The position numbers and the translations under genes were made by a program. This document shows positions 1 through 37,912 of a stretch of DNA of 64,000 nucleotides, one piece after another. Location of the stretch: contig OZ218778.1 in NCBI GenBank assembly GCA_965112635.1, positions 1,845,807 through 1,909,806 on the forward strand, given 5' to 3'. The notes under the pieces are model-generated. The model was not told where the DNA came from. It searched no databases and saw nothing but the letters and a program-made list of their open reading frames with translations. The stretch comes from an uncultured bacterium (GTDB taxonomy: Bacteria > Oederibacteriota > Oederibacteriia > Oederibacteriales > Oederibacteriaceae). Every line of letters starts with the position of its first letter. The stretch's first letter is position 1.

Positions 1-3000
1 CAGACCTACACGTTGACTAATACAGCTACCGTTACATCCACGAATACGAACACCCAGACCGCTACCGCCACGGCCACACAGACCTATTCTTTGACCAACA
101 CAGCTACAGCTACGGCCACGAACACAAACACGCGGACAGCTACCAGCACGGCCACTTACACGCTAACCAGCACCGCTACCGCCACGGCCACGCAGACCTA
201 TACTTTAACTAACACCGCTACAGCTACGGTTACGAATACAAACACGCGGACGGCCACAAGCACGGCTACCTATACTTTGACCAGCACCGCTACAGCTACG
301 AATACGGCCACGAACACGGCTACCAATACGGCTACTAGCACAGCTACAAATACGGCCACCCAGACGGCGACCTCAACCGCTACCGCCACAGCTACATCTA
401 CGGTTACCGCCACCAATACGGCCACCAGCACTACTACCAGCACAGCAACTAATACGACTACCAACACAGCTACTAATACAGCCACCCAGACCGCTACCGC
501 CACGGCCACACGGACCTATTCTTTGACCAACACAGCTACGAACACAGCTACACCAACGCTGACCTCAACTACTACCGCAACAGCTACATCTACGGTTACA
601 GCGACCAATACGACAACGAATACTGCAACAAATACGGCTACGAACACAACTACTCAGACAGCGACCTCAACTACTACTGCCACAGCTACATCCACGATTA
701 CAGCGACCAGCACGGCTACTAATACGGCCACTAACACAGCAACCAATACTGGGACAAATACTGCCACGAATACTGTTACCCAGACGATGACCGCAACTAT
801 TACTGTCACAGCTACATCTACAGCTTCAGCCACCAATTCGGCTACGAACACAGCTACTAACACGGCGACTAATACGGCCACGAACACGGCTACAAATACT
901 GCCACGAATACAGCCACCCAGACGGCGACCTCAACTGCTACCGCCACAGCTACATCTACGGTTACCGCCACCAATACGGCCACCAGCACTACTACCAGCA
1001 CAGCAACTAATACGACTACCAACACAGCTACTAATACAGCCACCCAGACCGCTACCGCCACGGCCACACAGACCTATTCTTTGACTAACACAGCTACCGC
1101 TACATCCACGAACACAAACACGCAGACGGCCACAAGCACGGCCACTTACACGCTAACCAGCACAGCTACGGCCACCGCTACGCAGACCTATACTTTGACC
1201 AGCACCGCTACAGCTACGGTTACGAATACAAACACGCGGACGGCCACAAGCACGGCTACCAATACGGCTACTAGCACAGCTACAAATACGGCCACCAACA
1301 CAGCTACGAACACAGCTACACCAACGCTGACCTCAACTACTACCGCAACAGCTACATCTACGGTTACAGCGACCAATACGACAACGAATACTGCAACAAA
1401 TACGGCTACGAACACAACTACTCAGACAGCGACCTCAACTACTACTGCCACAGCTACATCCACGATTACAGCGACCAGCACGGCTACTAATACGGCCACT
1501 AACACAGCAACCAATACTGGGACAAATACTGCCACGAATACTGTTACCCAGACGATGACCGCAACTATTACTGTCACAGCTACATCTACAGCTTCAGCCA
1601 CCAATTCGGCTACGAACACAGCTACTAACACGGCGACTAATACGGCCACGAACACGGCTACAAATACTGCCACGAATACAGCCACCCAGACGGCGACCTC
1701 AACTGCTACCGCCACAGCTACATCTACGGTTACCGCCACCAATACGGCCACCAGCACTACTACCAGCACAGCAACTAATACGACTACCAACACAGCTACT
1801 AATACAGCCACCCAGACCGCTACCGCCACGGCCACACAGACCTATTCTTTGACCAACACAGCTACAGCTACGGTTACGAATACAAACACGCGGACGGCCA
1901 CAAGCACGGCTACCAATACGGCTACTAGCACAGCTACAAATACGGCCACCAACACAGCTACGAACACAGCTACACCAACGCTGACCTCAACTACTACCGC
2001 CACAGCTACATCTACGGTTACAGCGACCAATACTTCTACGAATACAGCTACTAATACGCCCACCAATACAGCTACTTGGACTGCGACCCCAACCGCCACT
2101 GCCACATCAACATCTACAGTTACAGACACCAGTACAGCTACTTATACTGGGACAAATACGGCTACGAACACCACTACCAATACGGCCACTAACACGGCAA
2201 CCAACACAGCGACGAATACAGCTACAAGTACGGCAACCAGCACGAGTACCACGACAAATACGGTAACGAATACAGTTACTAACACAGCCACAAATACGGT
2301 TACTTGGACAATGACTAATACGGCTACCAACACAGCTACAAATACAGCCACCCAGACGGCGACCTCAACTGCTACCGCCACAGCTACATCTACGGTTACA
2401 GCGACCAATACGACAACGAATACTGCAACAAATACCGCAACGAACACAACTACTCAGACAGCGACCTCAACTACTACTGCCACAGCTACATCCACGATTA
2501 CAGCGACCAGCACGGCTACTAATACGGCCACTAAAACAGCAACCAATACTGGGACAAATACTGCCACGAATACTGTTACCCAGACGATGACCGCAACTAT
2601 TACTGTCACAGCTACATCTACGGTTACCGCAACCAATACGGCCACAAACACAGCTACGAATACGGCTTCTCAGACAACAACAGCAACAACTACTACTACA
2701 GCTACCAATACAGCTACTAATACGTCCACCAATACTGCTACTTGGACTGCGACCCTAACTGCCACTGCCACGTTAACATCTACAGTTACGGCCACCAGTA
2801 CAGCTACTTATACTGGGACAAATACGGCTACGAACACCGCTACCAATACAGCTACTTGGACAGCAACTAATACGGCCACCAACACAGCTACGAACACAAA
2901 TACTCAGACAGCGACCTCAACTGCTACTGCCACGGCTACGTCTACTAATACAGTAACCAATACGACAACCAATACGGCCACAAATACTGCAACAAATACA

Positions 3001-6000
3001 TCCACGATTACAGCTACCCAGACGGCAACAACAACTGCTACTGCCACTGCTACATCTACGGTTACAGCTACCAATACAGCTACTGATACGACAACGAATA
3101 CGGCCACAAATACGACTACGAACACCACTACCAATACGGTTACTAACACGGCAACAAATACAGCGACGAATACGGCTACCAGTACGGCAACCAGTACGAG
3201 TACCACTACGAACACAGCCACGAACACAGCCACTAATACTGCGACAAATACAGGCACAAATACTGCTACCCAGACGATGACATCAACTGTTACTGCCACA
3301 GCTACATCTACTGCTACAACTACCAATACGGCGACCAGCACGGCAACTAATACAGCTACGAATACAGCTTCTCAGACAGCAACCGCAACCCCTACCGCCA
3401 CAGCTACGGCTTCTAATACAACAACCAATACTGCAACAAATACTGTCACTACCACGACTACCAACACGGCCACTACTACAGTTACCAATACGGCTACAAA
3501 TACCACTACAGATACGGCAACTAATACGACTACCAGCACAGCTACAAACACAGCAACTCAGACTTCTACGAACACCACTACCAGCACAGCTACAAATACG
3601 GTTACAAATACGGCTACTTCTACAATAACCAACACAGCTTCGAGTACCGCTACAAACACAACAACTAATACGATTACCAATACTGCTACAAACACAGCGA
3701 CTCAGACTGTGACGAACACGGCTACCATTACAGCTACAAGCACGACTACAAACACAGCTACGAACACGGCAACTAGCACTGCGACAAATACAGCGACGAA
3801 TACAGCTACAAGTACTGCAACAAGTACGAGTTCCGCTACCAATACAGCTACCAACACTGCTACAAATACCGTCACTAATACTGCTACGAACACGGCAACC
3901 AATACTGCGACAAATACAACGACGATTACAGCTACCCAGACGGCGACCTTAACTACTACTACCACAGCTACATCTACGGTTACGGCAACCAACACGGCTT
4001 CTAATACAACAACAAATACTGCTACCAGCACGGCCACTAATACGGCAACAAATACTGCTACAAATACTGCCACGAATACTGCTACACAGACGGCGAGCTC
4101 AACTGTTACTGCCACAGCGACAGCTACATTGACAGCGACCAACACAACCACAAACACGACTTCCAATACAACTACGAACTCAGACACTCCAACAGCTACG
4201 AACACCGCTACCATTACAGTTACCAGTACGGCCACTAATACTATGACTAATACATCAACTAGTACTGGCACGAATACCAATACAACAACCCAAACAACCA
4301 CGAACACAACAACAAATACGGCTACTTGGACGGCGACTATTACTCCTACTAATACCACCACGAACACAGCTACAAACACGACTACAAACACAACCACGAA
4401 CACAGCAACTAACACTGCGACAATTACTTCAACTACTACCACTACCAATACTGCCACCAATACGGTTACTAACACTGCAAGCAATACTGCTACAAATACA
4501 GCGACGATTACTGCTACCCAGACGGCGACCTCAACTGCTACCGCCACAGCTACATCTACGGTTACAGCGACCATCACAACTACTAACACGACTACGAATA
4601 CCGCTACGAACACGACCACTAATACAGCTACCAATACAGCGACCAATACGGCTACGAATACCGCCACGAATACAACAACTAATACGACTACCAATACAGC
4701 TTCAAACACGGCAACCCAGACGGCTACGAACACCGCTACTATTACCTCTACAAACACGACTACAAACACAGCCACCAACACGGAAACTAACACTGTGACT
4801 ATTACTTCAACTACTACCGCTACCAATACTGCCACCAACACCGCGACGAGTACTGCAACTAATACAGCTACAAACACGACCACGGGAACCGTAACAAATA
4901 CTGCAACCAACACAGCGACTCAGACGGCTACGAGCACCACTACAAATACAGCTACCAATACGGCCACCAATACTGTGACCAATACATCAACTAGTACAGG
5001 TACGAATACCGATACGGCAACCCAAACAACTACGAATACAACAACAAATACGGCGACTTGGACGGCGACTAATACTCCTACTAATACCATCACGAACACT
5101 TCCACTAACACGACTACAAATACCACAACAAATACTGCAACTAATACGGTAACGAACACAAATACGATCACGAATACAGCGACCCAGACGATTACCAATA
5201 CTGTGACCAGTACAACAACAAGCACCACGACTTATACAACAACGAACACGAGCACCAGCACTAACACGGCGACTCAAACCGCAACGAATACAACTACAAG
5301 CACTGTTACAAATACAAGCACCCAAACAGCGACAAATACGACTACTCAGACCGCCACTCAAACAGCAACTCAGACAGAGACAGTTACTGCAACCGACACG
5401 GCAACTCAAACTGCCACCCAGACAATCACTCAGACAGCGTCAAGTACGGAGACCGTCACGAATACCACCACAGCAACCAGCACGACTACGACAACCAATA
5501 CAACTACTGCAACTTGTTCGTCTACCTTGACCGCAACTCCTACAGTGACCAGCACGTTGACAACGACCTTTACGGGGACAAGTTCAGCAACTCAAACGGC
5601 GACTGCAACTAGTACAAATACGAATACGAATACTGCAACAGGCACTACGACCAATACGGAAACTAATACAGCTACTCAGACTGCTTCGAGTACCGTGACA
5701 ACAACTGGCACGCCGACGAATACGGTTACCTCGACAGCCACTATTTCCCTTACATTCACAAATACAGTGACTCAAACCACAACAGCTACGGCTACTTTGA
5801 CGGTTACGACTACTACTACAAGTACAATTACAAATACTGCCACCACCACCAATACGGAGACATCGACATCTACCAGCACGACCACTGGTTCGGAGACTGC
5901 TACAAGTTCCGCGACAACGACGCCCACTAATACTGGTACCTCAACCACTACCGCAACGGAAACGATTACCGCTACTATAACTTGTACATTTACCGAAACT

Positions 6001-7974
6001 TACACGGAAACTAGCACATCAACTAATACAGCTACTCCTACAAATACCTGCACTGTAACTGTGACTACAACTTCAACTGAAACTATGACTTCCACCTGTT
6101 CTTACACTGCCACTTTGACAGATACAGTGACTTTAACTTGGACTGAAACAGCAACTTGTACTGAGACGGCAACCTGGACTGAAACAAGTTCACCAACAGC
6201 AACTGCCACGATCACGCTGACCCCAACCTCGACTCAGACAGGGACCCAAACGGCGACTCAGACTGATACGCAATCTGCAACCTCTACGGGCACCCCAACA
6301 AGCACTAACACAGTTTCGAATACAGTGACCCAGACAAGTACCAGCACTTTAACTTCAACGTTGTCATCTACCGGAACGACCACATCAACTGGGACAATAA
6401 CGAGCACGGGAACAATGACTATGACAGCGACTAATACAGGTACAGTGACGTTGAGTTCTACCTCAACCAATACCCCCACTCCAACTCCAACAAGTAGTGC
6501 CACCAATACGATTACGCTGACTTATACTCAAACTAAGACTGGCACCGTCACCACTACAGCAACACAAACAGCAACGGTGACCACGACAGGCACCATCACC
6601 CTTACCTTTACACAAACGGCTACATCTACGATGACCGCCACGACGACCATGACAGCAACGATCACCCTGACCAGTACTATTACTTTGACTTTTACGCAGA
6701 CGGCAACAGCTACTAACACGGCAACGATCACTCTGACTTTCACGAGCACCAATTCTGCTACAAACACTGATACAGCATCTAGGACGAGCACCGCCACCAT
6801 GACAGCGACTATTACTCTGACCCCAACTATCACCCAGACACCTACAACAACTACTACATATTCTTTGACCCTAACTCCGAGTTTAACCTTTACTTATTTG
6901 CCTTCTTCTACCCAAACCATGACAAGCACCATTAGCCCAACTTCATCCAAAACACCAACAATCACTTTGACATTTACCCAATCCTTAACAACGACTAATA
7001 CCGGTACCGTGACGGTTACCATGACCATCACTACTACCGGGACCATAACGGCTACCTCCACTTCAACACAAACTTATTCGAGGACGGCGACTATCACCCT
7101 CACTGCCACAATTTCCAATACGCCCTCTCAAACCCTAACGCTTACAATTACAACCACCTCGTCCCTCACGCCTACTTCGACTAACACCAGTACAGCAACA
7201 AGGACTGCGACAGTTACCGCGACGAGCATTGGAACCTCTACCCAAACATGGACCTTAACCACCACTCTGACCCTAACCTATACTCCCACTACCACTATGA
7301 CCATTACGCTCACCACGACCCCTACGACGACTCCAACGCCCTCACTTACCCTAACCAGCACCTATTCAGTCACGTCTTCCCAAACCTTCACTGCTAGCAC
7401 GACCTTCACGATCACTCCCACCCCTGGACCTTCTACTCTAACGGTCCAGGTTTTGGATGCGTTTGATGAACTGAGGTTGTCTGGGGCCACGGTTTCTATC
7501 ACAGGGCCTTCAGGAACGCTAACTGGCAGTACGGATGGACGGGGGAATGTTACCTTTAACGGACTAGTCTTTGGGTCATATACCGTAAGTGCTTCAATGA
7601 CCGGCTATAATGGATCTTCAGGGAATGCTGTGCTAGCTCAACTAAATAATAGTTTGTTGATACGGCTCTACACGCAGTACAAGTCCAGTGTCCCTTATCT
7701 GACCAAGAACATAATCAACCCACTGAAAAATGAGAGCCTTGAGATCGGATGTCTGCTTACTCAGAAAGAGCACGTTTTGATCAAGATATTTACCCTTTCT
7801 GGCGGGGCAGAGATCATCACTCTTGTTGATCAGGACATTAGTCAGGGTCGCTATGCTGTAGAATGGTTCGGCAAAACCATTAATGGTGACACTGTGGGCA
7901 ATGGGATTTATATAGTCTTTATTCAACTCGGGACTGACAGGTTCATCAAGAAAGTCGCTGTAGTTAAGCAATAA
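1..7974 (+). CDS. Giant surface/secreted protein, 5'-partial (>2,650 aa). About 2,400 residues of alternating Thr-X (TNTATNTAT...), then a CarboxypepD_reg-like beta-sandwich (~7441-7680) and a C-terminal FlgD-Ig/T9SS-CTD-like domain (~7690-7974)
   Basis: Frame 1 is open from nt 1 (QTYTLTNTAT...), so the N-terminus lies outside the window. Thr sits at every second position from residue 1 to about 2450. The C-terminus reads GATVSITGPSG..DGRGNVTFNGLVFGSYTVSASMTGY (CarboxypepD_reg pattern), then NPLKNESLEIG..VLIKIFTLSGGAEIITLVD..VEWFGKT.NGDTVGNGIYIVFIQL..KKVAVVKQ. The same C-terminal domain family is shared by all cargo proteins in this window. Confidence 0.8.
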   Translation, partial: QTYTLTNTATVTSTNTNTQTATATATQTYSLTNTATATATNTNTRTATSTATYTLTSTATATATQTYTLTNTATATVTNTNTRTATSTATYTLTSTATATNTATNTATNTATSTATNTATQTATSTATATATSTVTATNTATSTTTSTATNTTTNTATNTATQTATATATRTYSLTNTATNTATPTLTSTTTATATSTVTATNTTTNTATNTATNTTTQTATSTTTATATSTITATSTATNTATNTATNTGTNTATNTVTQTMTATITVTATSTASATNSATNTATNTATNTATNTATNTATNTATQTATSTATATATSTVTATNTATSTTTSTATNTTTNTATNTATQTATATATQTYSLTNTATATSTNTNTQTATSTATYTLTSTATATATQTYTLTSTATATVTNTNTRTATSTATNTATSTATNTATNTATNTATPTLTSTTTATATSTVTATNTTTNTATNTATNTTTQTATSTTTATATSTITATSTATNTATNTATNTGTNTATNTVTQTMTATITVTATSTASATNSATNTATNTATNTATNTATNTATNTATQTATSTATATATSTVTATNTATSTTTSTATNTTTNTATNTATQTATATATQTYSLTNTATATVTNTNTRTATSTATNTATSTATNTATNTATNTATPTLTSTTTATATSTVTATNTSTNTATNTPTNTATWTATPTATATSTSTVTDTSTATYTGTNTATNTTTNTATNTATNTATNTATSTATSTSTTTNTVTNTVTNTATNTVTWTMTNTATNTATNTATQTATSTATATATSTVTATNTTTNTATNTATNTTTQTATSTTTATATSTITATSTATNTATKTATNTGTNTATNTVTQTMTATITVTATSTVTATNTATNTATNTASQTTTATTTTTATNTATNTSTNTATWTATLTATATLTSTVTATSTATYTGTNTATNTATNTATWTATNTATNTATNTNTQTATSTATATATSTNTVTNTTTNTATNTATNTSTITATQTATTTATATATSTVTATNTATDTTTNTATNTTTNTTTNTVTNTATNTATNTATSTATSTSTTTNTATNTATNTATNTGTNTATQTMTSTVTATATSTATTTNTATSTATNTATNTASQTATATPTATATASNTTTNTATNTVTTTTTNTATTTVTNTATNTTTDTATNTTTSTATNTATQTSTNTTTSTATNTVTNTATSTITNTASSTATNTTTNTITNTATNTATQTVTNTATITATSTTTNTATNTATSTATNTATNTATSTATSTSSATNTATNTATNTVTNTATNTATNTATNTTTITATQTATLTTTTTATSTVTATNTASNTTTNTATSTATNTATNTATNTATNTATQTASSTVTATATATLTATNTTTNTTSNTTTNSDTPTATNTATITVTSTATNTMTNTSTSTGTNTNTTTQTTTNTTTNTATWTATITPTNTTTNTATNTTTNTTTNTATNTATITSTTTTTNTATNTVTNTASNTATNTATITATQTATSTATATATSTVTATITTTNTTTNTATNTTTNTATNTATNTATNTATNTTTNTTTNTASNTATQTATNTATITSTNTTTNTATNTETNTVTITSTTTATNTATNTATSTATNTATNTTTGTVTNTATNTATQTATSTTTNTATNTATNTVTNTSTSTGTNTDTATQTTTNTTTNTATWTATNTPTNTITNTSTNTTTNTTTNTATNTVTNTNTITNTATQTITNTVTSTTTSTTTYTTTNTSTSTNTATQTATNTTTSTVTNTSTQTATNTTTQTATQTATQTETVTATDTATQTATQTITQTASSTETVTNTTTATSTTTTTNTTTATCSSTLTATPTVTSTLTTTFTGTSSATQTATATSTNTNTNTATGTTTNTETNTATQTASSTVTTTGTPTNTVTSTATISLTFTNTVTQTTTATATLTVTTTTTSTITNTATTTNTETSTSTSTTTGSETATSSATTTPTNTGTSTTTATETITATITCTFTETYTETSTSTNTATPTNTCTVTVTTTSTETMTSTCSYTATLTDTVTLTWTETATCTETATWTETSSPTATATITLTPTSTQTGTQTATQTDTQSATSTGTPTSTNTVSNTVTQTSTSTLTSTLSSTGTTTSTGTITSTGTMTMTATNTGTVTLSSTSTNTPTPTPTSSATNTITLTYTQTKTGTVTTTATQTATVTTTGTITLTFTQTATSTMTATTTMTATITLTSTITLTFTQTATATNTATITLTFTSTNSATNTDTASRTSTATMTATITLTPTITQTPTTTTTYSLTLTPSLTFTYLPSSTQTMTSTISPTSSKTPTITLTFTQSLTTTNTGTVTVTMTITTTGTITATSTSTQTYSRTATITLTATISNTPSQTLTLTITTTSSLTPTSTNTSTATRTATVTATSIGTSTQTWTLTTTLTLTYTPTTTMTITLTTTPTTTPTPSLTLTSTYSVTSSQTFTASTTFTITPTPGPSTLTVQVLDAFDELRLSGATVSITGPSGTLTGSTDGRGNVTFNGLVFGSYTVSASMTGYNGSSGNAVLAQLNNSLLIRLYTQYKSSVPYLTKNIINPLKNESLEIGCLLTQKEHVLIKIFTLSGGAEIITLVDQDISQGRYAVEWFGKTINGDTVGNGIYIVFIQLGTDRFIKKVAVVKQ
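290..2650 (+). repeat. Near-perfect long tandem DNA repeats inside the giant ORF (units of about 560-780 bp; e.g. 537-1304 vs 1305-2072, 343-520 vs 903-1080 vs 1683-1860)
   Basis: Minus-strand antisense ORFs 654..1067 and 1422..1835 give identical 137-aa translations. Visible nucleotide identity over hundreds of bp (e.g. gccacccagacggcgacctcaactgctaccgccacagctacatctacggttaccgccaccaatacggccaccagcactactaccagc recurs three times). Confidence 0.85.
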
Positions 7975-8030: not shown

Positions 8031-8426
8031 ATGAACTGGAAAAAGGTTGTTCTTTGTATTTTTATTACCCTTTTCTCCTTATGGGGCAATCTTGCATTCA
8101 GCCAAGGCATTCCATGGCTGGACCAAGATGGGTTGTTTCTGGGCCATAACAAGATCAATCCGCTGAATCATGAGTCTGTATCTGTTGTCTATCATTTGGC
8201 GCAGGACACCCATGTGGTCATAAAAATTTATGATCTTTCCGGCCAGAAACTTATCAGGACATTAGTGGACGGGAATTTTGGAGGGAGTTGGTCATACCAA
8301 GTTTTTTGGGATGGCACCAGTAGAAGTGGAGATGTTGTTGGAAATGGTATTTACGTCATTCAGTTAGTAACCAAAAGTGTAAATATACTCAAATTCATTG
8401 CCGTGGTTAAAACCACAGGCAGTTAA
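8031..8426 (+). CDS. Small secreted protein made only of a signal peptide plus one FlgD-Ig/CTD-like domain (CTD-only minigene; paralog of the giant ORF C-terminus)
   Basis: MNWKKVVLCIFITLFSLWGNLAFSQG signal peptide. NPLNHESVSV..VVIKIYDLSGQKLIRTLVD..VFWDGTSRSGDVVGNGIYVIQL..KFIAVVK closely parallels the last 90 aa of 1..7974. GGGAGG RBS at ~8001. Confidence 0.7.
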   Translation: MNWKKVVLCIFITLFSLWGNLAFSQGIPWLDQDGLFLGHNKINPLNHESVSVVYHLAQDTHVVIKIYDLSGQKLIRTLVDGNFGGSWSYQVFWDGTSRSGDVVGNGIYVIQLVTKSVNILKFIAVVKTTGS

Positions 8427-8432
8427 AGGGGG

Positions 8433-10085
8433 GTGGGTAGGGTGCAAATCTTTATGGTTGGTTTGGTCATTCTGTTGATGTGGGCGCCCAATGTTTTTGG
8501 CACGGCTTTTGGAACCACGGGCCAAAATTTTCTAACCATTGGCGTTGGTGCAAGGCCGACGGCGATGGGAGGGGCTTTCGTCGGTCTAGCTGACGACCCT
8601 GATGCGATCCACTGGAACCCAGCTGGTTTGATTAATCTTGAAGACTATGAAATTTCCCTGATGCATAGCGCTCTCATCGGAGACGTCAGCTATGATACCG
8701 TTTCCTACGCCCAGCCCATAGCTGTTGATTATGGTTATATTGGAGCCGGCATTGCCTATTTAGGTGTCCCCCCGTTTGATAATACCGTTGGTCGCGAAAA
8801 CTCGATCTCTGCCCATAATTTCCTGTTAGACATTGCCTATGCGAATCGATTGAGCGATATGTTTGATATAGGCAATCCAATCGGCCGGCGTTTAAGTTTG
8901 GGACTAGGTATAAAATGGATCAATTTTTCGATCGATAACTTGGTGAGTTATAATGACGTGGCCTTCGATGTTGGCACCTATTTCATCACTCCCTGGGAAC
9001 CGTTAACTCTGGGCGCGAGTTTGCAAAATTTAGGTATTTCTCTGGACCCTGCCGCTGTTTCAGACCCACTGCCTTTGACCTTTAGATGCGGAGCGTGTGT
9101 CCACATTGCAGACCTATCTATGCAGCTTGACCTGATCCAGCAAGTGGATAATGACGCCGTGATAGGATGGGGAACAGAATATAATTTCCAGGATTTATTG
9201 TTCCTAAGGGGTGGTTATGCGATTGGCGGGCCTTCTCTAAACGGGTTGTCCGGGATAACATGCGGTGCCGGATGGAGGATGAGGTCCTTTGAGTTTGATT
9301 ATACCTTTGTACCTATGGGGGAGTTGGGCGCCACCCACCGTTTTTCTCTTAACGTTTCCTTTGAACAGGAGCTCAAAGAATTACGTAAGAATCTGGCCGT
9401 GGAATCCAAAGACAAGGTCCAAAAAGATGAAATCATTGCTTTATATAAGAAGGGCAATGAATTCTATTATCAGGGGAACTACACTCAAGCTTTGGATGCC
9501 TGGCAGCAGATCCTGATCGTGGACCCGAAAAATCAAAAAGCGCAGGAAAGAATCACTTTTACCACGAACCTTTTGAACAAGAAGTTCACGGAAAACGAAG
9601 CAACGCAGTATTATGAACAGGGAATGAGTGATTATTCGGCTGGTGACTACGAAAAGGCTTTGGAACAATGGGCTAGTGTCCAAAAGATAGTTCCCGATTA
9701 CTTGAATATAAAGGAGATGATAAGTAAGGCAGAGGCGAAGTTGGCTGAAAAGAGAGTCGACAGGGCTGGAGTGGGTCCTTTGCTTGAAGCTGCTCGTACT
9801 TCCTATAAACAAGGGCAACTGCTGGATGCCGTCAAAGATTGGAGAAAAGTTTTAGAAGCAAATCCTCAAAATCAGGAAGCCCTGAAGTCGTTAAAGGATG
9901 CTAATGCGGAGATTTTAAACTTGGCAAAGAAAACCTATGATAAGGGGTTAGAATTTTACACCAATGGGGATTACGATAATGCCATTGCCACCTGGAAAAA
10001 TGTGGTAATACTTCAGCCTGATCACCCAACCGTATTGGGTGATATTGAGAGAGCCCAGAAAGAGGTAAATTCGTTGAAAAAATAA
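8433..10085 (+). CDS. FadL/TodX/PorV-family outer-membrane beta-barrel fused to a C-terminal ~240-aa TPR-like extension
   Basis: N-terminal signal peptide. FadL-family N-motif GARPTAMGGAFVGLADDPDAIHWNPAGL. Barrel ends with a beta-signal-like FSLNVSF, followed by four or more TPR-like repeats (YYQGNYTQALDAWQQILIVDPKN..., YEKALEQW..., WRKVLEANPQN..., YDNAIATWKNVVILQPDH). The start may be GTG 8433/8442 or ATG 8454. Confidence 0.65.
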   Translation: MGRVQIFMVGLVILLMWAPNVFGTAFGTTGQNFLTIGVGARPTAMGGAFVGLADDPDAIHWNPAGLINLEDYEISLMHSALIGDVSYDTVSYAQPIAVDYGYIGAGIAYLGVPPFDNTVGRENSISAHNFLLDIAYANRLSDMFDIGNPIGRRLSLGLGIKWINFSIDNLVSYNDVAFDVGTYFITPWEPLTLGASLQNLGISLDPAAVSDPLPLTFRCGACVHIADLSMQLDLIQQVDNDAVIGWGTEYNFQDLLFLRGGYAIGGPSLNGLSGITCGAGWRMRSFEFDYTFVPMGELGATHRFSLNVSFEQELKELRKNLAVESKDKVQKDEIIALYKKGNEFYYQGNYTQALDAWQQILIVDPKNQKAQERITFTTNLLNKKFTENEATQYYEQGMSDYSAGDYEKALEQWASVQKIVPDYLNIKEMISKAEAKLAEKRVDRAGVGPLLEAARTSYKQGQLLDAVKDWRKVLEANPQNQEALKSLKDANAEILNLAKKTYDKGLEFYTNGDYDNAIATWKNVVILQPDHPTVLGDIERAQKEVNSLKK

Positions 10086-10191
10086 GAATCATTAACTTAT
10101 CTCAGAGCCAAAAACGGTAATAATATCTATATATTTGACAATTAAAATTTGGATAGGTAGACTTTCAACCAAATGGTGAGGATAAGTAAAT

Positions 10192-12192
10192 ATGAAAAGT
10201 AATTCCAATAAGAGAAGCTATTTTCCTTTTTATTGTTTTTGGATAGTTGTAAGTTTATTTCTCCTCCTTTCTGTTTCCATGCTCCTTCAAATTGCGCTTG
10301 CCCAAGACAATGCTTCTCATGTTGCCTCTATATCTGTTGATGAGGGTGTTAAGGCTTATTTAGGGGGGGATTTAGATAAGGCTATTTTATCCTTTGAAGA
10401 TGCGTTAAATTCCGGTCAGGACGCCGAAAAAATAAAGGCTCTTTTAGTAAAAGCCCTGGTGGAGCGGAGCAACCAGTTGTTCGTGCAGGGAGATTTTACC
10501 AAAGCTTTTACTTACTCCAGCCGCGCCAAAGAGTTAGCTCCCAATAACCAGGAAGTGGCCTTAATTAATAGCCTTATCCTGCAAGCTAAAAGAGCCGTTG
10601 ATGTGCGGCCTATCAGAAAAACAGAAACGGTTTTGATCAGGGAGACCAGCACTGCTAACCGCCAGATGCAGAAGCAAATAGGGCAATTACTAGAGGCTTT
10701 CAAGCAGACCCAGCAGAAAATCTCCTTGTTGAATGTTTCACCCACAGCCGTATCAAAGTCGGTCGGCGCAGATATTATCTTTTATGTTTTATTGATTGGG
10801 GTGTTATTGGCCGGTGCGATTATCGTGTTTATTAGAGTGTGGTTTAGGTCCCACGAATCAATATTTACCCAGCAGCAAAATAAATTATTAGGTGTCATCT
10901 ATAACCAACAGCAAGTCCTGCTCAAAGATAACCAGAGGCTTGTTCCTGAGTCTACTCCAACCAACAAGGAAAGCATTAGCACGAGGGAAATGCTCAGCGA
11001 TCTCAATCCGCATGTCCGGGCCAGAGGCTTGGAGGTCTTGGCTGAGGAGCTCGAGCGCGAAAAGACTCCGAGCATTGTGGCCAAAAAGATCATTACCCCG
11101 TTTTTAAGCGAAAAAGACAATCGAGTCAGGGGCAATGCCGTTAAGGTTCTTTATAAATACGACGTTGAACAGGCGCGCGAGATCTTGAGGGAGATGTTTT
11201 GGAGTGGCAATGAATGGATGAGGCTTTCGGCAGCTTGGGTAATCGGGGAAGTAGCGGATCACGAGGGTGCGAGATGGATATTGCAGGCTATGGATGAGGC
11301 TCTGCCTCACCTGAAGCGGCGTTGCATCAAAACGATCCAGATATTTTTGAAGAATAGGAATCCACAATTACCCCTAGATCTTCATGACCAGATGAAGGAA
11401 ACGCTGGAAAAATTTAGGGATTATGTAGAAGAGGAAAACTCCCGACCTAATAGCCAGTCAGGAGTTTTGGGCACTACTACGGACAGTAAGGGGGGGGCTA
11501 CCGATGACAGTTCAAGCAGAAACATTTCGCCGAGGTGGAGGTACGTTTTAAAGAATTTATTTAGGAAACAGTGGCAAGCTCTAGAACGAGAGGTTCGGGA
11601 GCGCGAGCGGATAGCGTTCAAGTCCAGGGAAGACGTTGAATCTTTAGCTTTAGCAGAAAAGCAGAGGAATATTAGGCTTAGTACTGATATGGAAAAGTTG
11701 GAAAGGCAATATTTTGCCGTAAAAAAGAAGCTGGAAGAAGCAGAGAGCCAGTTTGCAGAATATAAAGCAGAGAATGACAGGGTGAGCAATCTGTTAAGTC
11801 AAAATTTGGCGGAGATCAATGAGCTCAAAAAGATCAAAGAAGATTTCAAAAAGGTCGTTGAAGAGAACAAAAACCTCCAGAATATGCTCATGGATAAAAG
11901 TAGTTCTTGGGCCACGGTTGTTCCAGGCGGGAGCCCTATTCTCGATGAAAGCAAAAGCAAAGCGGATGATGTACAGAATCTGGTCAATTCATACACGGAA
12001 TTGGAAAAACAGTGGCAAGCCATTTTGGCGGAGAAAGAAAGCCGTGTGGGTTCCCTTAAACAAAAAATGACGGAAACGGACGAGAAAGTCAAAAAAAAGG
12101 GGGAAGTTCGTAAGAAAGTAAGCAAAGAAAAAAGCAGCAGTATCGGAAGGTTGTATTATTTTGTGAACAAGAAATTGGGCGGTCTGCAGTAA
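10192..12192 (+). CDS. Membrane protein: N-terminal TM, periplasmic TPR-like region, second TM, cytoplasmic HEAT/PBS-lyase-like repeats and a long Lys/Glu-rich coiled coil
   Basis: Hydrophobic segments FPFYCFWIVVSLFLLLSVSMLLQIALA and IIFYVLLIGVLLAGAIIVFIRVWF. HEAT-like NPHVRARGLEVLAEEL..DNRVRGNAVKVLYKY..WMRLSAAWVIGEVAD. Coiled-coil C-terminus. sigma70-like promoter candidates in the AT-rich spacer 10086-10191. Confidence 0.5.
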   Translation: MKSNSNKRSYFPFYCFWIVVSLFLLLSVSMLLQIALAQDNASHVASISVDEGVKAYLGGDLDKAILSFEDALNSGQDAEKIKALLVKALVERSNQLFVQGDFTKAFTYSSRAKELAPNNQEVALINSLILQAKRAVDVRPIRKTETVLIRETSTANRQMQKQIGQLLEAFKQTQQKISLLNVSPTAVSKSVGADIIFYVLLIGVLLAGAIIVFIRVWFRSHESIFTQQQNKLLGVIYNQQQVLLKDNQRLVPESTPTNKESISTREMLSDLNPHVRARGLEVLAEELEREKTPSIVAKKIITPFLSEKDNRVRGNAVKVLYKYDVEQAREILREMFWSGNEWMRLSAAWVIGEVADHEGARWILQAMDEALPHLKRRCIKTIQIFLKNRNPQLPLDLHDQMKETLEKFRDYVEEENSRPNSQSGVLGTTTDSKGGATDDSSSRNISPRWRYVLKNLFRKQWQALEREVRERERIAFKSREDVESLALAEKQRNIRLSTDMEKLERQYFAVKKKLEEAESQFAEYKAENDRVSNLLSQNLAEINELKKIKEDFKKVVEENKNLQNMLMDKSSSWATVVPGGSPILDESKSKADDVQNLVNSYTELEKQWQAILAEKESRVGSLKQKMTETDEKVKKKGEVRKKVSKEKSSSIGRLYYFVNKKLGGLQ

Positions 12193-12295: not shown

Positions 12296-14278
12296 GTGCC
12301 AGAGAAAAGCGAGGTTGTTTTAAATATTGAGGGTAACAGGGTAACGGTTTCTGCAGAGACCAGTTCTTTGTCTATTCTGCGGATGTTTGTGGACAGAAAA
12401 CTTCGGGAGTTTTCCTTCAAACAAGATGACATTGATGCAATCGAATTGGCCGTTGACGAAGCCTGCACAAATATTATTGAGTACGCTTATCCTGATGCCC
12501 CAGGTCCAGAAAAGACCATTACGCTTGAAATTGGGTTGACCAGGGATGATGTCCATGTATTTATTATGGATTATGGAGTCCCCGTTCCCGAAAAGGTCGT
12601 AAAAAAATTTAGCAGCGTTAAAGGAAAGCCTAAAGGCGAACAAGTGGGGGGCTGGGGTATCTACTTAATTGCTAATTCGGTCAACGAGGTTCGATATAGT
12701 CGCAAAAAGAACGCAAATATTTTGAGATTAAAAAGAAAGCGTTTGAAATTATCAGCAGTCGCAGGGAGGCGTCCTTTTTTTGTGGGCTCTCTTTCTTTAC
12801 GGGCCCAATTTAACGCCTATATTTTCTTCATCTTTTTAGTAAGTGCTGTTTGTATAGCCTTTTTGATCATCCCACAAGAGCGCCGTATCATAGAAAGCAG
12901 ATCAATCAACAATGGCATATGGCTGGCTAGGAATTTCGCCGGCAGGGTCACGGCTCCTTACTTAGCGCATGATCAGTTGACCCTGGCAGTAACCGCCCGC
13001 TTAATGGAGGAAAATCCCCAGGTCGCCTACGCTGTCATTACCGATTCAAAAGATATAGTCCAAATAGACCCAAAAGGGCAGCTGTCTGGTTTATTATTCA
13101 GCCATGGGTATTTTGGAAATCCTATTTTAGCGCAAGAAAATGTGCGATGCAGAGAAGCGAGGGTTTTAGATATGAATGTCTATGACCTTCAGTCAGATCT
13201 CACAATCAGGCATCTTAATAAGGCAGTGACTCTCGGCTCCATTCACCTGGGTTTGAACCGCAATATCATTAATCAGGTCATCAATGATGCTATCAGGAAC
13301 ATTGGAATTATCGCTATTATGATCCTATTAGTCATACTTGTTTTAACGTCGATCATGACAGAGTTTGTAATTCGGCCTATTAGAAAGCTAATGGCCGGAG
13401 TTCGACAAATAGGGAACGGTTATTTCGATTATCGCCTTGATTTGAAAAGTACCCAGGAGTTAAAAGAGCTTTCGGATGCTTTTAATATCATGGCTCGCGA
13501 CTTAAAGCAAGGGCGCGAAACGCAGCTAGAAAAGATCAAGATCGAGCAGGAGCTGGATATGGCCAGCCATGTCCAAAAACTGTTATTGCCCAAAGAGATC
13601 CCGTCCATTCCGGGTTGCGACTTTGGAATGTTCTACCGGTCAGCCAAACAACTGGGAGGAGATTATCTAGATTTTATACCTATCAGTGATGAGTTGATGG
13701 GTATTGTGATCGCCGATGTGGCAGGAAAGGGAGTTCCCGCCGCATTGATGATGTCCAATGTTCGGAGTACCCTAAGGGCTGCAGCTAAAAGCGAAAGGTC
13801 ACCCAAAAAAGTTCTGACTTTTCTAAATGAGCAAATAACCAAAGATACCACGCCGGATGTTTTTATAACGATGCTTTACTGTATTTTTAATTTGCAAAAC
13901 AGGGAAATTAAATATGCTTCAGCAGGACATTGTCCCTTGCTTTGCTTGCCTGCTGGACGCAATAAGATTATTGAATATAAAACCCTGGGTTTTCCACTGG
14001 GAATAGAGCAGGGGCCAAAGTTTGAGGAAAGGTTGGAAGAAGGGGATCAATTGTTAAAGACCGGAGATATTATAGTGTTATACTCCGACGGGGTGAATGA
14101 AGCTTTTAACAACAGAGGTGAAGAATTCGGAGAAAAGAGACTTTTTGAAGCCATTCTTAAGAACCAAGATTTAACTGCCCAGCAGTTAGCTACTCTAATT
14201 GAAAATGAAGTTAGTTCCTTTATTGGACAAAAGAAACGCAGCGATGATATCAGTATTATCACCTGTAAAATAAAATAA
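12296..14278 (+). CDS. Partner-switching signalling protein: N-terminal RsbW/SpoIIAB-like GHKL anti-sigma kinase domain, TM, periplasmic sensor, TM, HAMP, then PP2C/SpoIIE Ser phosphatase
   Basis: GHKL motifs AVDEACTNIIEYAY..FIMDYGVP..GGWGIYLIANSV. Two TM helices flank a ~150-aa loop. HAMP (IRPIRKLMAGVRQIGNGYFDYRL..ELSDAFNIMARDL). PP2C motifs GGDYLDFIPI..GIVIADVAGKGVPAALMMS..VLYSDGVNEAFN..DDISIITCKI. GTG start with GGAGG RBS. Confidence 0.7.
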   Translation: MPEKSEVVLNIEGNRVTVSAETSSLSILRMFVDRKLREFSFKQDDIDAIELAVDEACTNIIEYAYPDAPGPEKTITLEIGLTRDDVHVFIMDYGVPVPEKVVKKFSSVKGKPKGEQVGGWGIYLIANSVNEVRYSRKKNANILRLKRKRLKLSAVAGRRPFFVGSLSLRAQFNAYIFFIFLVSAVCIAFLIIPQERRIIESRSINNGIWLARNFAGRVTAPYLAHDQLTLAVTARLMEENPQVAYAVITDSKDIVQIDPKGQLSGLLFSHGYFGNPILAQENVRCREARVLDMNVYDLQSDLTIRHLNKAVTLGSIHLGLNRNIINQVINDAIRNIGIIAIMILLVILVLTSIMTEFVIRPIRKLMAGVRQIGNGYFDYRLDLKSTQELKELSDAFNIMARDLKQGRETQLEKIKIEQELDMASHVQKLLLPKEIPSIPGCDFGMFYRSAKQLGGDYLDFIPISDELMGIVIADVAGKGVPAALMMSNVRSTLRAAAKSERSPKKVLTFLNEQITKDTTPDVFITMLYCIFNLQNREIKYASAGHCPLLCLPAGRNKIIEYKTLGFPLGIEQGPKFEERLEEGDQLLKTGDIIVLYSDGVNEAFNNRGEEFGEKRLFEAILKNQDLTAQQLATLIENEVSSFIGQKKRSDDISIITCKIK

Positions 14279-14294
14279 GGAAAGGAGTTAGTCC

Positions 14295-14654
14295 ATGAGT
14301 GAAACTGGTTTGGATATTGTTATTGCCGGGACAGAGTCTAAAAAAGGATGCAAATTAATATTAAAAGGGTATTTAGACGCTGAAACTGTTCCAAAGTTAA
14401 ATGCCAAAATGAAAGATGTTATCCAACAAAAAACAAGCAAAATAATACTTGATCTACAAGAGATATCTTTTATTAGCAGTGCAGGGTGGGGAGCGTTGGT
14501 GATTTTGGCAAAAACGGCTCAAAGAGAAAAAGGAAACATAGTACTAATCAATTTGGGCCCTAAGCTGGCCAGGACCTTTAATCTTTTGGACCTATCTCCA
14601 ATCTTGCAAGTATTTTCTAGTGAAGCCGATGCGTCTGCATTTTTGAATAAATAA
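14295..14654 (+). CDS. STAS-domain anti-sigma-factor antagonist (RsbV/SpoIIAA-like)
   Basis: 119 aa. KIILDLQEISFISSAGWGALVILAKTAQREKGNIVLINLGPKLARTFNLLDL has the typical STAS fold signature with the conserved phospho-Ser context (ISSAG). Lies 16 bp downstream of the kinase/phosphatase gene. Confidence 0.75.
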   Translation: MSETGLDIVIAGTESKKGCKLILKGYLDAETVPKLNAKMKDVIQQKTSKIILDLQEISFISSAGWGALVILAKTAQREKGNIVLINLGPKLARTFNLLDLSPILQVFSSEADASAFLNK

Positions 14655-14848: not shown

Positions 14849-15718
14849 ATGCAAAAGTCTGTGGCTATTGGCACCGTGGTCAGAATGACCGGGCTCTCCA
14901 AGGTAGTGTTGCGTTATTGGGAAAAACTCGGTCTCATCAAACCTCTGCGTTCTGAAAAAGGACGCCGCCGTTATGATATGGACCAACTTAAAGAGATAAT
15001 CAGGATCAAAGAACTCCTGAAAAAGCACCGTATGCGGGTTTCAGAACTGGTCAACTCCACCGAGCTTCTAAAAGATAACTTCCTAAAAACGATTTTTGAC
15101 AACGAACTGGAACAGGATATTGATAACCTCAAGAGTGGAACAGGGGACCTTAAGCCAGGAGACTCAGGGTTTGTGCCGGATTCTATGGCCGCCAATATTA
15201 TGATGGAACGGATCGAACGAAGGATCGCCAAAGGTAAGCCGTTAGCCCTTATCTTCCTGGATATTCTCCATTTAGATGAATTCCGACAGCGGTACGGGGA
15301 GGAGCGCACTAACAAACTTTTGAATTTTTCCGCTGTCCTTATTTTAGATATGATCGGCAGTTACGGGAATGCCGAGGATAGCGTACATCACCTTGGCCAG
15401 GGCCGGTTCATTATTCTTACCACTCCCAATAAATTTCAGGGTATCATCCCATCAATCCTTTCTTCCTTCCAAGAATTCGTTGTTTTTAAATATGATGAGA
15501 AGGATCAGGCGCCTATGCTGTTGAGAATAAAATCCGGACTTTTAGAAGGGAAAGACCAGCCTGGAAAAGGATTTCCTGTCGCGGCCTTAAAAGTGCTTGT
15601 TCAGACCAACCGAAAGTTTATTAATCAAATCATGTCCAATCCAGAAAACAGGAGTGCTGATTCTGTTCTAAATAAGTTGAAAGAAACAAGCACGCCTTTT
15701 GTGCCGCCAACCTTATGA
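14849..15718 (+). CDS. MerR-family HTH regulator fused to a degenerate GGDEF-like domain (GQGRF in place of GG[DE]EF)
   Basis: MQKSVAIGTVVRMTGLSKVVLRYWEKLGLIKPLRSEKGRRRY is the MerR HTH signature. C-terminal LALIFLDILHLDEFRQRYGEERTNKLLNFSAVLILDMIG...HHLGQGRFIILTT follows the GGDEF-domain pattern (lALilLDiDhFKqiNDtyGH...aRlGGDEFvill) with a non-canonical active site. The ORF track start 14783 lies in AT-rich promoter DNA; ATG 14849 is preferred. The 3' end overlaps tsaB (ATGA). Confidence 0.6.
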   Translation: MQKSVAIGTVVRMTGLSKVVLRYWEKLGLIKPLRSEKGRRRYDMDQLKEIIRIKELLKKHRMRVSELVNSTELLKDNFLKTIFDNELEQDIDNLKSGTGDLKPGDSGFVPDSMAANIMMERIERRIAKGKPLALIFLDILHLDEFRQRYGEERTNKLLNFSAVLILDMIGSYGNAEDSVHHLGQGRFIILTTPNKFQGIIPSILSSFQEFVVFKYDEKDQAPMLLRIKSGLLEGKDQPGKGFPVAALKVLVQTNRKFINQIMSNPENRSADSVLNKLKETSTPFVPPTL

Positions 15719-16404
15719 AGACACAACGCCTCATTCTTGCCTTTGAAACAGCTACTTCTCTTGGGAGCGTGGCTCTTTTAGATTCACTAAACCTGTTAGG
15801 TGAGGTGTTTTTCAGCCAATCCCAAAACTATGAAGCAAGCATCATTAAATCCGTTGATTATTTGCTTAGGCAGCATAATAAGAATATTAAGAATATTGAT
15901 GTTATTGCTGTTTCTGCCGGGCCAGGTTCTTTCACAGGTTTGCGCGTAGGGCTGGCCACTGTCAGAGGACTGGCCCAAAGCCTAAACAAGAAAGTAGTAC
16001 CTGTTTGCACTTTGGATTCAATGGCTTTCCAGGAAATGGAAATGTCTAGTATTGATCTTTGTCCACTACTGGATGCGAAACGAGGCGAGGTCTTTTCAGC
16101 AGTATACCGCAAAACTTATCAGGGGATTGCGAGGAATACCCAGCCCTTTGTGAGCAGCCCCGAAGAACTATGCCGTAGGATCAAAAGACCAACCTGCTTT
16201 TTCGGAGAGGGGTGGCTGAAATATGGATCTTTAATAAGAGAAAATTTGGGTGCTGTGGCAGTTGATGGGCCGCCTCATTCTGGAGTTAGAGCTTCAATCG
16301 TGGGATTAATAGCAGCCAAGTCAAGCATGTTAACCAGGGCTATTGATTATAATGAGGTAGAGCCCTGGTATATCCGCAGGCCTTTTGCAAAACAAAAGAG
16401 CTAA
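15715..16404 (+). CDS. tsaB: tRNA threonylcarbamoyladenosine biosynthesis protein TsaB (YeaZ)
   Basis: MKTQRLILAFETATSLGSVALL...IDVIAVSAGPGSFTGLRVGLATVRGLAQSL is the TsaB/Kae1-family ASKHA fold; 229 aa; followed by rimI as in the conserved tsaB-rimI pair. Confidence 0.85.
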   Translation: MKTQRLILAFETATSLGSVALLDSLNLLGEVFFSQSQNYEASIIKSVDYLLRQHNKNIKNIDVIAVSAGPGSFTGLRVGLATVRGLAQSLNKKVVPVCTLDSMAFQEMEMSSIDLCPLLDAKRGEVFSAVYRKTYQGIARNTQPFVSSPEELCRRIKRPTCFFGEGWLKYGSLIRENLGAVAVDGPPHSGVRASIVGLIAAKSSMLTRAIDYNEVEPWYIRRPFAKQKS

Positions 16405-25046: not shown

Positions 25047-25103
25047 GACTTCTAATAAAAGCTCGCGAAAGGAGGCGTTATTTTGCAGGTCAAAGCTGGT
25101 GTG

Positions 25104-25649
25104 ATGGGCGCGGCGGGAGGGAAAATGTCCGCTGAAGCCAAGAAGAAATCCTATATGCTGGGCCGTGCCTTAGCTGAGGCCGGTTGCGTCGTGGTCACGG
25201 GAGGATGTCCCGGCCTGCCCTCAGAGGCCACCCGCGGGGCCAAATATGCCGGGGGCCTGACCCTGGGCATTTCTCCGGGCCTTAATCTCCAGGAACATGT
25301 GGAGCTTTACAAGTCTCCCACAGAATACCTGGATATCCTCATTTTCACCGGGTCGGGCTTGATGGGCCGAGAAGTCATCGGCGTCAGGAGCTGCGACATT
25401 ATCTTCATCGTAGGGGGTCGTTCCGGCACCCTGGGTGAGTTCAGTATCGCCTACGACGAGGGGCTGCCCATCGGAGTTTTAGAAGGGACGGGCGGCATCA
25501 CCCTGGGCTTGAGGCAGGTGCAAAAGCTCGTCAACAAGAAAACGGGCAGCGTGGTGCTTTACGACAAAGACCCCTACCAGCTGGTACGGCGGCTACTCAA
25601 AGAGCATGAAAAACACAAAATCAGAAAGATCAATTATTCCGCGGGGTAA
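25104..25649 (+). CDS. LOG/TIGR00725-family Rossmann-fold protein
   Basis: GRALAEAGCVVVTGGCPGLPSEATRGA...IFTGSGLMGREV..IIFIVGGRSGTLGEFSIAYDEGLPIGVL matches the LOG-like GGxxGxMxA / GGxGTxxE pattern. Confidence 0.55.
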   Translation: MGAAGGKMSAEAKKKSYMLGRALAEAGCVVVTGGCPGLPSEATRGAKYAGGLTLGISPGLNLQEHVELYKSPTEYLDILIFTGSGLMGREVIGVRSCDIIFIVGGRSGTLGEFSIAYDEGLPIGVLEGTGGITLGLRQVQKLVNKKTGSVVLYDKDPYQLVRRLLKEHEKHKIRKINYSAG

Positions 25650-37783: not shown

Positions 37784-37912
37784 GCTTTTTCCCTTTCCGT
37801 AACTTGATAATCGATCCCTAACTCTCTATACTTTAACAGAAAACTATTGTAATCTCATTTGCAGGCACGAACAATACCTGAAGAAAAACCATTGGTAAAA
37901 AAGAAGAAAACC

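Follow-up and report, generated by a model that had tools for sequence, protein, structure and literature searches.

A membrane receptor with SypE-like order of serine kinase and PP2C phosphatase domains, and its predicted STAS substrate, in an uncultured Oederibacteriota bacterium

Partner switching is commonly presented as a means of controlling sigma factors. RsbW-type kinases phosphorylate a conserved serine of a STAS protein and RsbU/SpoIIE-type PP2C phosphatases take the phosphate off, and in the best-studied exceptions, SypE/SypA, HsbR/HsbA and HenR/All4160, the STAS proteins control biofilm, motility or polysaccharide synthesis. Here we describe a gene for a transmembrane receptor with domains of both enzyme types, together with the STAS gene that adjoins it, in a 64,000-nucleotide stretch of the genome of an uncultured bacterium of the family Oederibacteriaceae (Oederibacteriota; GenBank assembly GCA_965112635.1, contig OZ218778.1, positions 1,845,807 to 1,909,806 of the forward strand; hereafter the window, numbered from its first nucleotide). 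Our reading, to which we give a probability of roughly 0.7, is that this is a SypE-like dual Ser-kinase/phosphatase membrane receptor which sets the phosphorylation of the STAS protein, with an output that is non-transcriptional and related to the cell surface.

The closest architectural analogue is SypE of Vibrio fischeri, in which an N-terminal histidine protein kinase (HPK)-like, RsbW-type Ser-kinase of ~140 amino acids (aa) with an essential Asn is followed by a central module and a C-terminal PP2C, and whose kinase and phosphatase activities both act on Ser56 of SypA, a single-domain STAS protein from the same locus (PMC3610818). The order kinase, regulatory module, PP2C is the same in the receptor, and its residue N59 and Ser62 of the adjoining STAS protein would be the counterparts of the essential Asn and of SypA Ser56, likened by architecture and not by sequence. 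SypE, however, is soluble and has a central receiver (REC) domain fed by a phosphorelay, whereas the receptor has a first transmembrane helix (TM1), a Cache domain, a second transmembrane helix (TM2) and a HAMP domain, which would give it direct extracytoplasmic input. Pfam and NCBIfam scans of the receptor gave no Response_reg (REC) match, so that it would work like SypE but falls outside the SypE family. SypE also sits in a polysaccharide locus; the receptor in the window has no such genes beside it, although its relatives in Ignavibacteria and Zixibacteria, lying beside Wza, Wzz, ParA-like and GGDEF genes, recall one.

HsbR/HsbA of Pseudomonas aeruginosa and CrsR/CrsA of Shewanella oneidensis likewise have a PP2C and an RsbW-type kinase in one chain with a STAS protein as substrate (PMC6482189). 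HsbR and CrsR are ordered REC, PP2C, C-terminal kinase, and are soluble, phosphorelay-fed and able to bind RpoS, whereas the receptor has an N-terminal kinase, no REC and two transmembrane helices. Rv1364c of Mycobacterium tuberculosis (PAS, PP2C, RsbW-like kinase and STAS in one chain) shares the fused enzymes but is cytoplasmic, takes its input through PAS, has the reverse enzyme order and its own fused STAS, and is linked to SigF regulation. All three modules of the Bacillus subtilis RsbU/RsbW/RsbV and SpoIIE/SpoIIAB/SpoIIAA systems are homologous to the receptor and its STAS protein, which keep the active-site motifs and the phospho-Ser; in Bacillus each module is a protein of its own, the kinase serves as anti-sigma factor to a sigma encoded in the operon, and RsbU lacks the transmembrane Cache-HAMP unit. 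Kinase and phosphatase had been described in a first-pass annotation of the window as normally separate proteins, with the implication that their fusion is rare. That does not hold: SypE, HsbR, CrsR, Rv1364c and receptor-type HAMP-PP2C-kinase proteins are all fused, and the combination of an RsbW-like kinase with a PP2C is widespread and not new.

The receptor gene (labelled 'KSP'; 12296..14278, + strand) starts with GTG, preceded 9 nt upstream by GGAGG as a putative ribosome-binding site (RBS), and encodes 660 aa in a single uninterrupted open reading frame (ORF). After a gap of exactly 16 nt follows the STAS gene (14295..14654, +), which encodes 119 aa from an ATG with AGGAG upstream; this close spacing and the presence of an RBS before each gene point, at the level of sequence, to their co-expression. 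From N to C terminus the receptor consists of an RsbW-like GHKL Ser-kinase, TM1, a periplasmic single-Cache domain, TM2, HAMP and PP2C. In the Pfam scan HATPase_c_2 covered residues 19-145 (E 6e-22), HAMP residues 358-404 (E 2e-9) and SpoIIE/PP2C residues 465-659 (E 1.5e-46), whilst sCache_3_2 matched residues 198-333 with E 1.5e-5 and 25.5 bits, just under its gathering score of 28.4. Both ORFs with their 16-nt spacing, and a layout of cytoplasmic N-terminal GHKL domain, paired helices around a sensor, HAMP and PP2C, had been proposed in the first-pass annotation, and Pfam, hydropathy and a structure model all agree with them; the sensor, then put at ~150 aa, has 143 residues between helices at aa 174-192 and 336-354. 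Equivalog-type models of NCBIfam all scored far under their cutoffs on the receptor. The best was SiaA, at 77 bits against a cutoff of 700 over residues 327-659 (TM2, HAMP and PP2C), so the receptor is not an ortholog of SiaA, the membrane HAMP-PP2C of P. aeruginosa SiaABCD that controls a phospho-switch protein and biofilm. SiaABCD has its kinase, SiaB, as a protein apart and of another type, and SiaC, the substrate there, is not known as a classical STAS protein.

The GHKL domain (12323..12739, +; aa 10-148), of RsbW/SpoIIAB-like Ser-kinase type and placed in the cytoplasm, was recognised through HATPase_c_2, through alignment and as a compact fold in the model. It has an N box 'DEACTN' (E55, N59), a G1 box 'DYG' (D92, G94) and a G2 box 'GGWG' (G118, G119, G121), and E55/N59, D92/G94 and G119/G121 align to RsbW (6m36) and SpoIIAB (1til/1th8). 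These six residues are invariant in an alignment of 36 family receptors; in a second alignment of 74 receptors E55, N59, D92, G94 and G121 are again invariant and G119 is present at ≥90%. Since members of both alignments are only ~25-30% identical to the window protein, boxes that stay invariant at this distance are to be expected only where selection acts on ATP binding and catalysis. In the structure model the ATP-lid loop (110-117) is of low confidence. A degenerate domain without the N, G1 and G2 boxes, which the first-pass annotation had named as the finding that would count against it, is thus not what the receptor carries.

The presumed substrate is a single STAS domain (Pfam, E 9e-19) of the anti-sigma-antagonist type, scoring 67 bits against a cutoff of 53 with TIGR00377 (anti-sigma factor antagonist). 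When it is aligned to TM1442, SpoIIAA and RsbV, its motif F-I-S-S62-A-G-W-G matches F-M-D-S58-S-G-L-G of SpoIIAA, which puts Ser62 (codon AGT, 14478..14480, +) at the Ser58 position, and Ser62 also aligns to the serine in 'mdSaGlG' of TM1442. Ser62 is thus the predicted phospho-acceptor, and a conserved Ser, the other feature on which the first-pass annotation had made its proposal depend, is present. The sequence 'ISSAGWG' is identical in 24 of 24 orthologous partners recovered, from eight lineages. Of 27 loci, at least 21 have a separate STAS gene after the receptor, and in two more a fused STAS-like segment was recognised by motif alone; Pfam found a second, fused STAS-like domain in the relative P0010, and one locus (L013) has two STAS genes. 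Searches of the window with phmmer found no other STAS, PP2C or kinase paralogs.

The phosphatase domain (13616..14272, +; aa 441-659), a C-terminal and cytoplasmic PP2C/SpoIIE-type Ser-phosphatase, has the motifs GGD (454-456), DVAGKG (474-479), SDG (597-599) and DD (650-651). In the 36- and 74-sequence alignments D456, D459, D474 and G479 do not vary, whilst D598, D650 and D651 stand at ≥90%; the best solved relatives are Rv1364c (3ke6, E 1.5e-12) and P. aeruginosa RssB (3eq2/3es2). With the kinase boxes, the STAS Ser and the metal-binding Asp residues of the PP2C, the receptor and the STAS protein have what is expected in sequence of the kinase, substrate and phosphatase of a partner-switching module.

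Between the two enzymes lie TM1 (12815..12871, +; aa 174-192, Kyte-Doolittle 2.92), the periplasmic single-Cache/PDC sensor (12872..13300, +; aa 193-335), TM2 (13301..13357, +; aa 336-354, Kyte-Doolittle 3.09) and the HAMP domain with an extension of its AS2 helix (13367..13585, +; HAMP aa 358-404). The sensor was assigned from its weak sCache_3_2 match, its AlphaFold2 (AF2) fold and Foldseek. Modelled alone it gave a PDC/Cache fold at a mean predicted local distance difference test (pLDDT) of 87, with a long N-terminal helix, a five-stranded antiparallel sheet and a C-terminal helix running into the membrane. In Foldseek its closest match was the extracellular domain of WalK/YycG (5is1, 7dud; template-modelling score ~0.6), followed by the sensor domains of Tlp3, KinD, LuxQ and CitA, with chemoreceptor Cache domains among the matches. 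Among 50 relatives scanned, 16 had an sCache_3_2 match at E ≤ 0.001, the best at 2.8e-14.

In the full-length AF2 model (pLDDT 88.8, predicted template-modelling score (pTM) 0.51, 74 input sequences) both enzyme domains lie on the cytoplasmic side. One continuous helix (168-223) joins the juxtamembrane region to the Cache domain by way of TM1, a second (322-373) joins the Cache domain to HAMP AS1 by way of TM2, and a third (387-430), 44 residues unbroken, leads from HAMP AS2 into the PP2C, whose fold starts at 441. On the kinase side the chain is different. The tether to TM1 (12740..12814, +; aa 149-173) is Lys/Arg-rich, falls below pLDDT 50 at residues 153-163, where it is predicted to be disordered, and ends in the juxtamembrane sequence 'SLRAQF'. 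In PPM phosphatases with HAMP, REC, PAS or GAF inputs a crossing helical linker dimerises the catalytic domains and so activates them (PMC12143880). As far as the model goes, the receptor shares with the HAMP-linked members of this group a HAMP domain that continues as a helix into the PP2C, and its linker matches the activation mechanism of RsbU (PMC12143880); the model is of a monomer, and the dimer geometry is our extrapolation from it.

The first-pass annotation had proposed a bifunctional switch under the control of the sensor. The fused enzyme domains are in keeping with this, but control by the sensor appears to be one-sided, the model wiring it rigidly to the phosphatase only and leaving the kinase on a disordered tether. 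For this reason the switch is probably a regulated phosphatase opposing a tethered kinase. A reciprocal wiring, with TM1 driving the kinase and TM2 the phosphatase, had something in its favour at first, as 22 of the 36 family sequences searched have an LRxKF-like motif ahead of TM1; we have downgraded it to a possibility in view of the ~19-residue disordered tether as against the continuous HAMP-PP2C helix.

The mechanism that we propose is as follows. An RsbW-type kinase, which a flexible ~20-residue tether keeps close to the cytoplasmic face of the membrane, would phosphorylate the co-transcribed STAS protein at Ser62 with ATP, and the PP2C domain would take this phosphate off. The periplasmic single-Cache domain may sense a ligand or an envelope cue and pass the signal through TM2, HAMP and the continuous helical linker to the PP2C; in what is likely to be a dimer, the phosphatase could be switched on or off by a coiled-coil linker mechanism as in RsbU. 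The signal would thereby set the ratio of unphosphorylated to phosphorylated STAS protein, of which the unphosphorylated form would be free to bind a partner, most likely one other than a sigma factor. Architecture, catalytic motifs, family and synteny are what was observed here, and from them we infer the shared STAS substrate, the regulated phosphatase arm and the output.

The receptor belongs to a family. A kinase-Cache-HAMP profile searched against 1.84 billion representatives was matched over its whole length, from their own N terminus, by ~110-120 clusters (50% identity) with lengths of 448 to 2,253 aa. Of 50 members scanned, all had HATPase_c_2 and SpoIIE and 42 had HAMP; a C-terminal HTH_23/28 was found in 17 and tetratricopeptide repeats (TPR) in ten. 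The receptor in the window is the minimal form, with no C-terminal extension. Its only near-identical database protein is P0001, which is identical and is the window's own (on a contig of 2.88 Mb), and full-length relatives have 27-31% identity. At least 32 loci of the family were found in a scan of reference genomes (numbered with L here), in Zixibacteria, Krumholzibacteriia, Latescibacterota, Ignavibacteria, Calditrichia, KSB1, FCPU426 and Eisenbacteria. SecA from the window has 65% identity to sequences of candidate division FCPU426, a loose placement of the lineage near that group. Many homologues of this kinase-first class (class A; L004, L005, L010, L012 and others) have a transposase-like HTH_23/28/32 extension after the PP2C, and the STAS partners of such extended relatives are 230-270 aa long with tails that look alike by eye ('...P.fG..ri...L...'). 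For a membrane receptor and for its substrate, a domain of DNA-binding type is a puzzling feature.

A second and commoner class (class B) has the order dCache/HAMP, PP2C, kinase, and GAF-PP2C-kinase proteins are abundant too. Class B proteins (dCache/HAMP-PP2C-HATPase_c_2; P0015, P0033, P0037) combine a transmembrane sensor, HAMP and both enzymes as the receptor does, but their kinase follows the PP2C and nothing precedes TM1, whereas the sensor of the receptor has an enzyme on each side. What is new, then, is a regulatory module built on a transmembrane Cache-HAMP receptor with its kinase ahead of TM1, a coherent and undescribed family in candidate phyla related to the Fibrobacteres-Chlorobi-Bacteroidetes (FCB) group, and the linkage of this family to a pair of genes, for a giant cargo protein and a PorV-like barrel, in place of a sigma factor. 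We found no published description of the receptor architecture or family in a literature search, whose incomplete coverage makes this weak evidence.

The conserved gene order is a giant protein (1,400-2,600 aa), an outer-membrane barrel with TPR (~550-700 aa), the receptor, an ATPase in nine loci, and STAS. Among the 29 loci with enough sequence, at least 25 have the barrel-TPR gene upstream of the receptor, and at least 25 of 27 have the giant gene there; all neighbourhood counts are lower bounds, as the ORF caller mis-parsed several high-GC loci (e.g. L002 and L006). In the window the barrel gene (8433..10085, +) encodes a PorV/PorQ-family outer-membrane barrel (aa 28-310) followed by C-terminal TPR matches; its product scores 161.5 bits with NF033709 (PorV_fam) against a cutoff of 90, and that of the L040 ortholog 104.4 bits. 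The ATPase, of ParA/AAA_31 type and bacterial tyrosine (BY)-kinase-like, is ~260 aa long and lies between receptor and STAS in overlapping frames in L004, L010, L012-L015, L017, L018 and L021, and by gene call in L006. Downstream genes encode GGDEF, Wza and Wzz proteins in Ignavibacteria and Zixibacteria, and a DUF4159 protein and a 1,140-aa protein in Calditrichia. The arrangement ATPase-STAS-GGDEF-Wza-Wzz resembles a split BY-kinase/polysaccharide-export unit under STAS control. In the window locus no exopolysaccharide (EPS) genes adjoin the receptor. An apparent further neighbour cluster (c7) was an opposite-strand artefact.

The first-pass annotation had also noted that no sigma factor gene is adjacent, and this extends further. 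Pfam found no sigma domain among the large ORFs of the window, phmmer with SigF and RpoE against all its ORFs of ≥90 aa found no sigma factor, and in 36 related loci the same kind of search found a sigma factor of the extracytoplasmic function (ECF) type in two, both KSB1, ~8 kb off and on the opposite strand, and none in 34. The SigF and RpoE queries were hand-typed reference sequences, which is a caveat, and the two ECF detections show that the search works. These results bear on the most serious alternative, a classical anti-sigma switch in which the membrane-tethered kinase domain would sequester a distal sigma factor, to be displaced by dephosphorylated STAS, with a transcriptional output. 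The N-terminal domain is indeed a homologue of RsbW and SpoIIAB, which are true anti-sigma factors; CrsR and HsbR, themselves fused proteins, bind RpoS without having rpoS next to them (PMC6482189); and the window covers no more than 64 kb out of ~2.9 Mb of genome. We nevertheless regard such a switch as unlikely, as what is conserved beside the receptor over about eight lineages is the secretion-cargo and PorV-like pair and not a sigma factor, and as SypE/SypA, the closest analogue, does not act on syp transcription (PMC3610818). STAS switches with other outputs are also on record: FlgM and the diguanylate cyclase HsbD are partners of HsbA without being sigma factors (PMC6482189), and All4160, of the Anabaena pair HenR/All4160, acts in EPS synthesis.

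The two enzyme domains could instead have different substrates, one acting on the adjacent STAS protein and the other on, for example, the receptor itself, a 666-aa HEAT protein encoded just upstream of it or the HTH/STAS extensions of relatives. Some relatives do have a second, fused STAS-like domain, many have HTH or TPR extensions, and L013 has its two STAS genes, so that the module can have several clients. Minimal members, the receptor in the window included, have one STAS gene that is tightly coupled to them, and in every characterised partner switch known to us, SypE among them, the RsbW-type kinase and the RsbU-type phosphatase share one STAS serine; separate substrates therefore seem quite improbable. 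It is still harder to see the GHKL domain as a non-catalytic binder that sequesters the STAS protein, which would make the receptor a PP2C with a docking site. Some RsbW-like domains do mainly bind, and where the canonical G1 box DxGxG has its third Gly the receptor has Pro (DYGVP), but RsbW itself is without this glycine (DEGDS), and the near-complete invariance of the boxes among receptors so far diverged speaks strongly for an enzyme. A chance or mis-called fusion, arising from assembly or gene calling, is ruled out by the domain E-values, the single unbroken ORF, the identical protein P0001 on independent assemblies and the more than 100 homologues of the same layout, with PP2C in 50 of 50 scanned.

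Several points weigh against a SypE-like receptor with a surface-related output. The catalytic activities of family members are predicted from sequence comparison. The monomer AF2 model, with its pTM of 0.51, gives nothing certain on signalling in a dimer, and the LRxKF-like juxtamembrane motif in 22 of 36 sequences may leave room for a regulated kinase arm. A very divergent sigma factor could escape the search, and one may be encoded elsewhere in the genome. The window is without the ParA-like, GGDEF, Wza and Wzz genes of some relatives, and synteny could reflect co-regulation in place of a direct functional link. Lastly, the giant cargo and the PorV-like barrel are extracytoplasmic, and a cytoplasmic STAS protein cannot contact them directly; an intermediate is therefore needed.

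If the SypE-like reading is right, the partner of the STAS protein would more likely be tied to the neighbouring genes, which in most loci means the giant cargo and the PorV/PorQ-TPR barrel; alternatives would be the ParA/BY-kinase-like ATPase, GGDEF, Wza and Wzz components in Ignavibacteria and Zixibacteria, and possibly the 666-aa protein in the window. More tentatively, and with greater doubt than belief on our part, receptor and STAS could be the dedicated cytoplasmic control unit of a four-gene surface module (giant cargo, PorV/PorQ-TPR, receptor, STAS) in FCB-related phyla, in which the Cache domain would monitor the envelope or the cargo and STAS phosphorylation would gate secretion, anchoring or matrix production post-translationally.

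The giant gene of the window (13..7974, +) is open at the window start and encodes a secreted protein of >2,650 aa, in which a Thr-X repeat body is followed by a non-repetitive C-terminus with CarboxypepD_reg and sorting-type C-terminal domains. Over the first ~2,330 residues it is nearly pure Thr-X dipeptide (52% Thr, 15% Ala, 11% Asn; probability of Thr at i+2 given Thr at i, 0.90), and these repeats cause the GC skew of -0.38 and AT skew of +0.40 of the first 8 kb. Its C-terminal domain matches models of the type IX secretion system (T9SS) weakly (E 0.0014). BLAST gave no link between it and the giants of other loci, the sole cross-locus match being to the C-terminus of a 636-aa secreted protein of L048. 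It matches them in position and in C-termini that look similar by eye ('...KVAVVKQ' and '...KIAVVK'), its membership of cluster c0 coming through an adjacent small ORF. This ORF (8031..8426, +; 131 aa) consists essentially of a T9SS type A sorting domain standing alone (TIGR04183, 25.7 bits; cutoff 23) and matches the C-terminal ~95 aa of other loci's giants (22 hits, 12 loci listed); it may be an orphan left over from a cargo gene, or else a genuine small protein.

Between the PorV-like gene and the receptor the window has an insert of its own, the 666-aa gene (10192..12192, +; HEAT_2 E 1.2e-8, weak TPR_2). Its product has an N-terminal hydrophobic segment, TPR, a second hydrophobic and probably transmembrane segment, HEAT and a Glu/Lys-rich C-terminal region, the hydrophobic segments and the Glu/Lys-rich tail having been identified by eye in the translation. 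As a conserved partner it was rejected, since the 36 related loci have no homolog of it; it may share a transcript with the receptor and is possibly a candidate lineage-specific partner of the switch. A promoter-like site lies at 10135-10163, but promoter and terminator scans around the operon gave background levels and are not used as evidence.

Downstream the genes are unrelated to the module: a MerR-like gene, then tsaB and rimI. The first, of MerR-type helix-turn-helix (HTH) class (14849-15718, +), has a weak GGDEF-like region (E 8e-5, sub-threshold at 22.8 bits against 23.8) and overlaps tsaB (15715..16404) by 4 nt, with rimI (ORF from 16385, called from 16427) next; a MerR-type HTH gene is an unusual partner for the housekeeping genes tsaB and rimI. 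We rejected it as the output of the switch on account of a 195-nt AT-rich gap, a promoter-like site of its own, its coupling to tsaB and the lack of a counterpart in related loci.

Elsewhere in the window, FlgD_ig-type C-terminal domains and/or DUF11 and FG-GAP repeats occur in the products of 32509-35175 (+), 37859-39079 (+), 53755-55992 (-), 56088-59744 (-) and 59810-63373 (-), one of which is a subtilase, which suggests that the genome has many surface or secreted proteins tagged with sorting domains. A SLOG cluster4 (LDcluster4) protein (25083-25649, +), beside an M23 peptidase and secA, is apparently unrelated to the receptor module.

Set beside the known exceptions to the sigma-factor mechanism, the receptor family is a compact version, with sensor, kinase and phosphatase in one chain and the substrate adjoining. 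Were the link to secretion one of co-regulation only, the finding would reduce to a new arrangement of known domains. If the receptor and STAS are indeed the control unit of a surface module, they would represent a new class of partner-switching output, governing a T9SS-linked surface system, and the receptor would be of a new design, in which one sensor has antagonistic enzymes on both of its transmembrane helices. The conserved giant-cargo and PorV-like context narrows the search for the STAS target, with regulation of a T9SS-type surface protein or of matrix as the hypothesis, and the family lends itself to the question of how a single transmembrane sensor keeps two opposing enzymes in balance.

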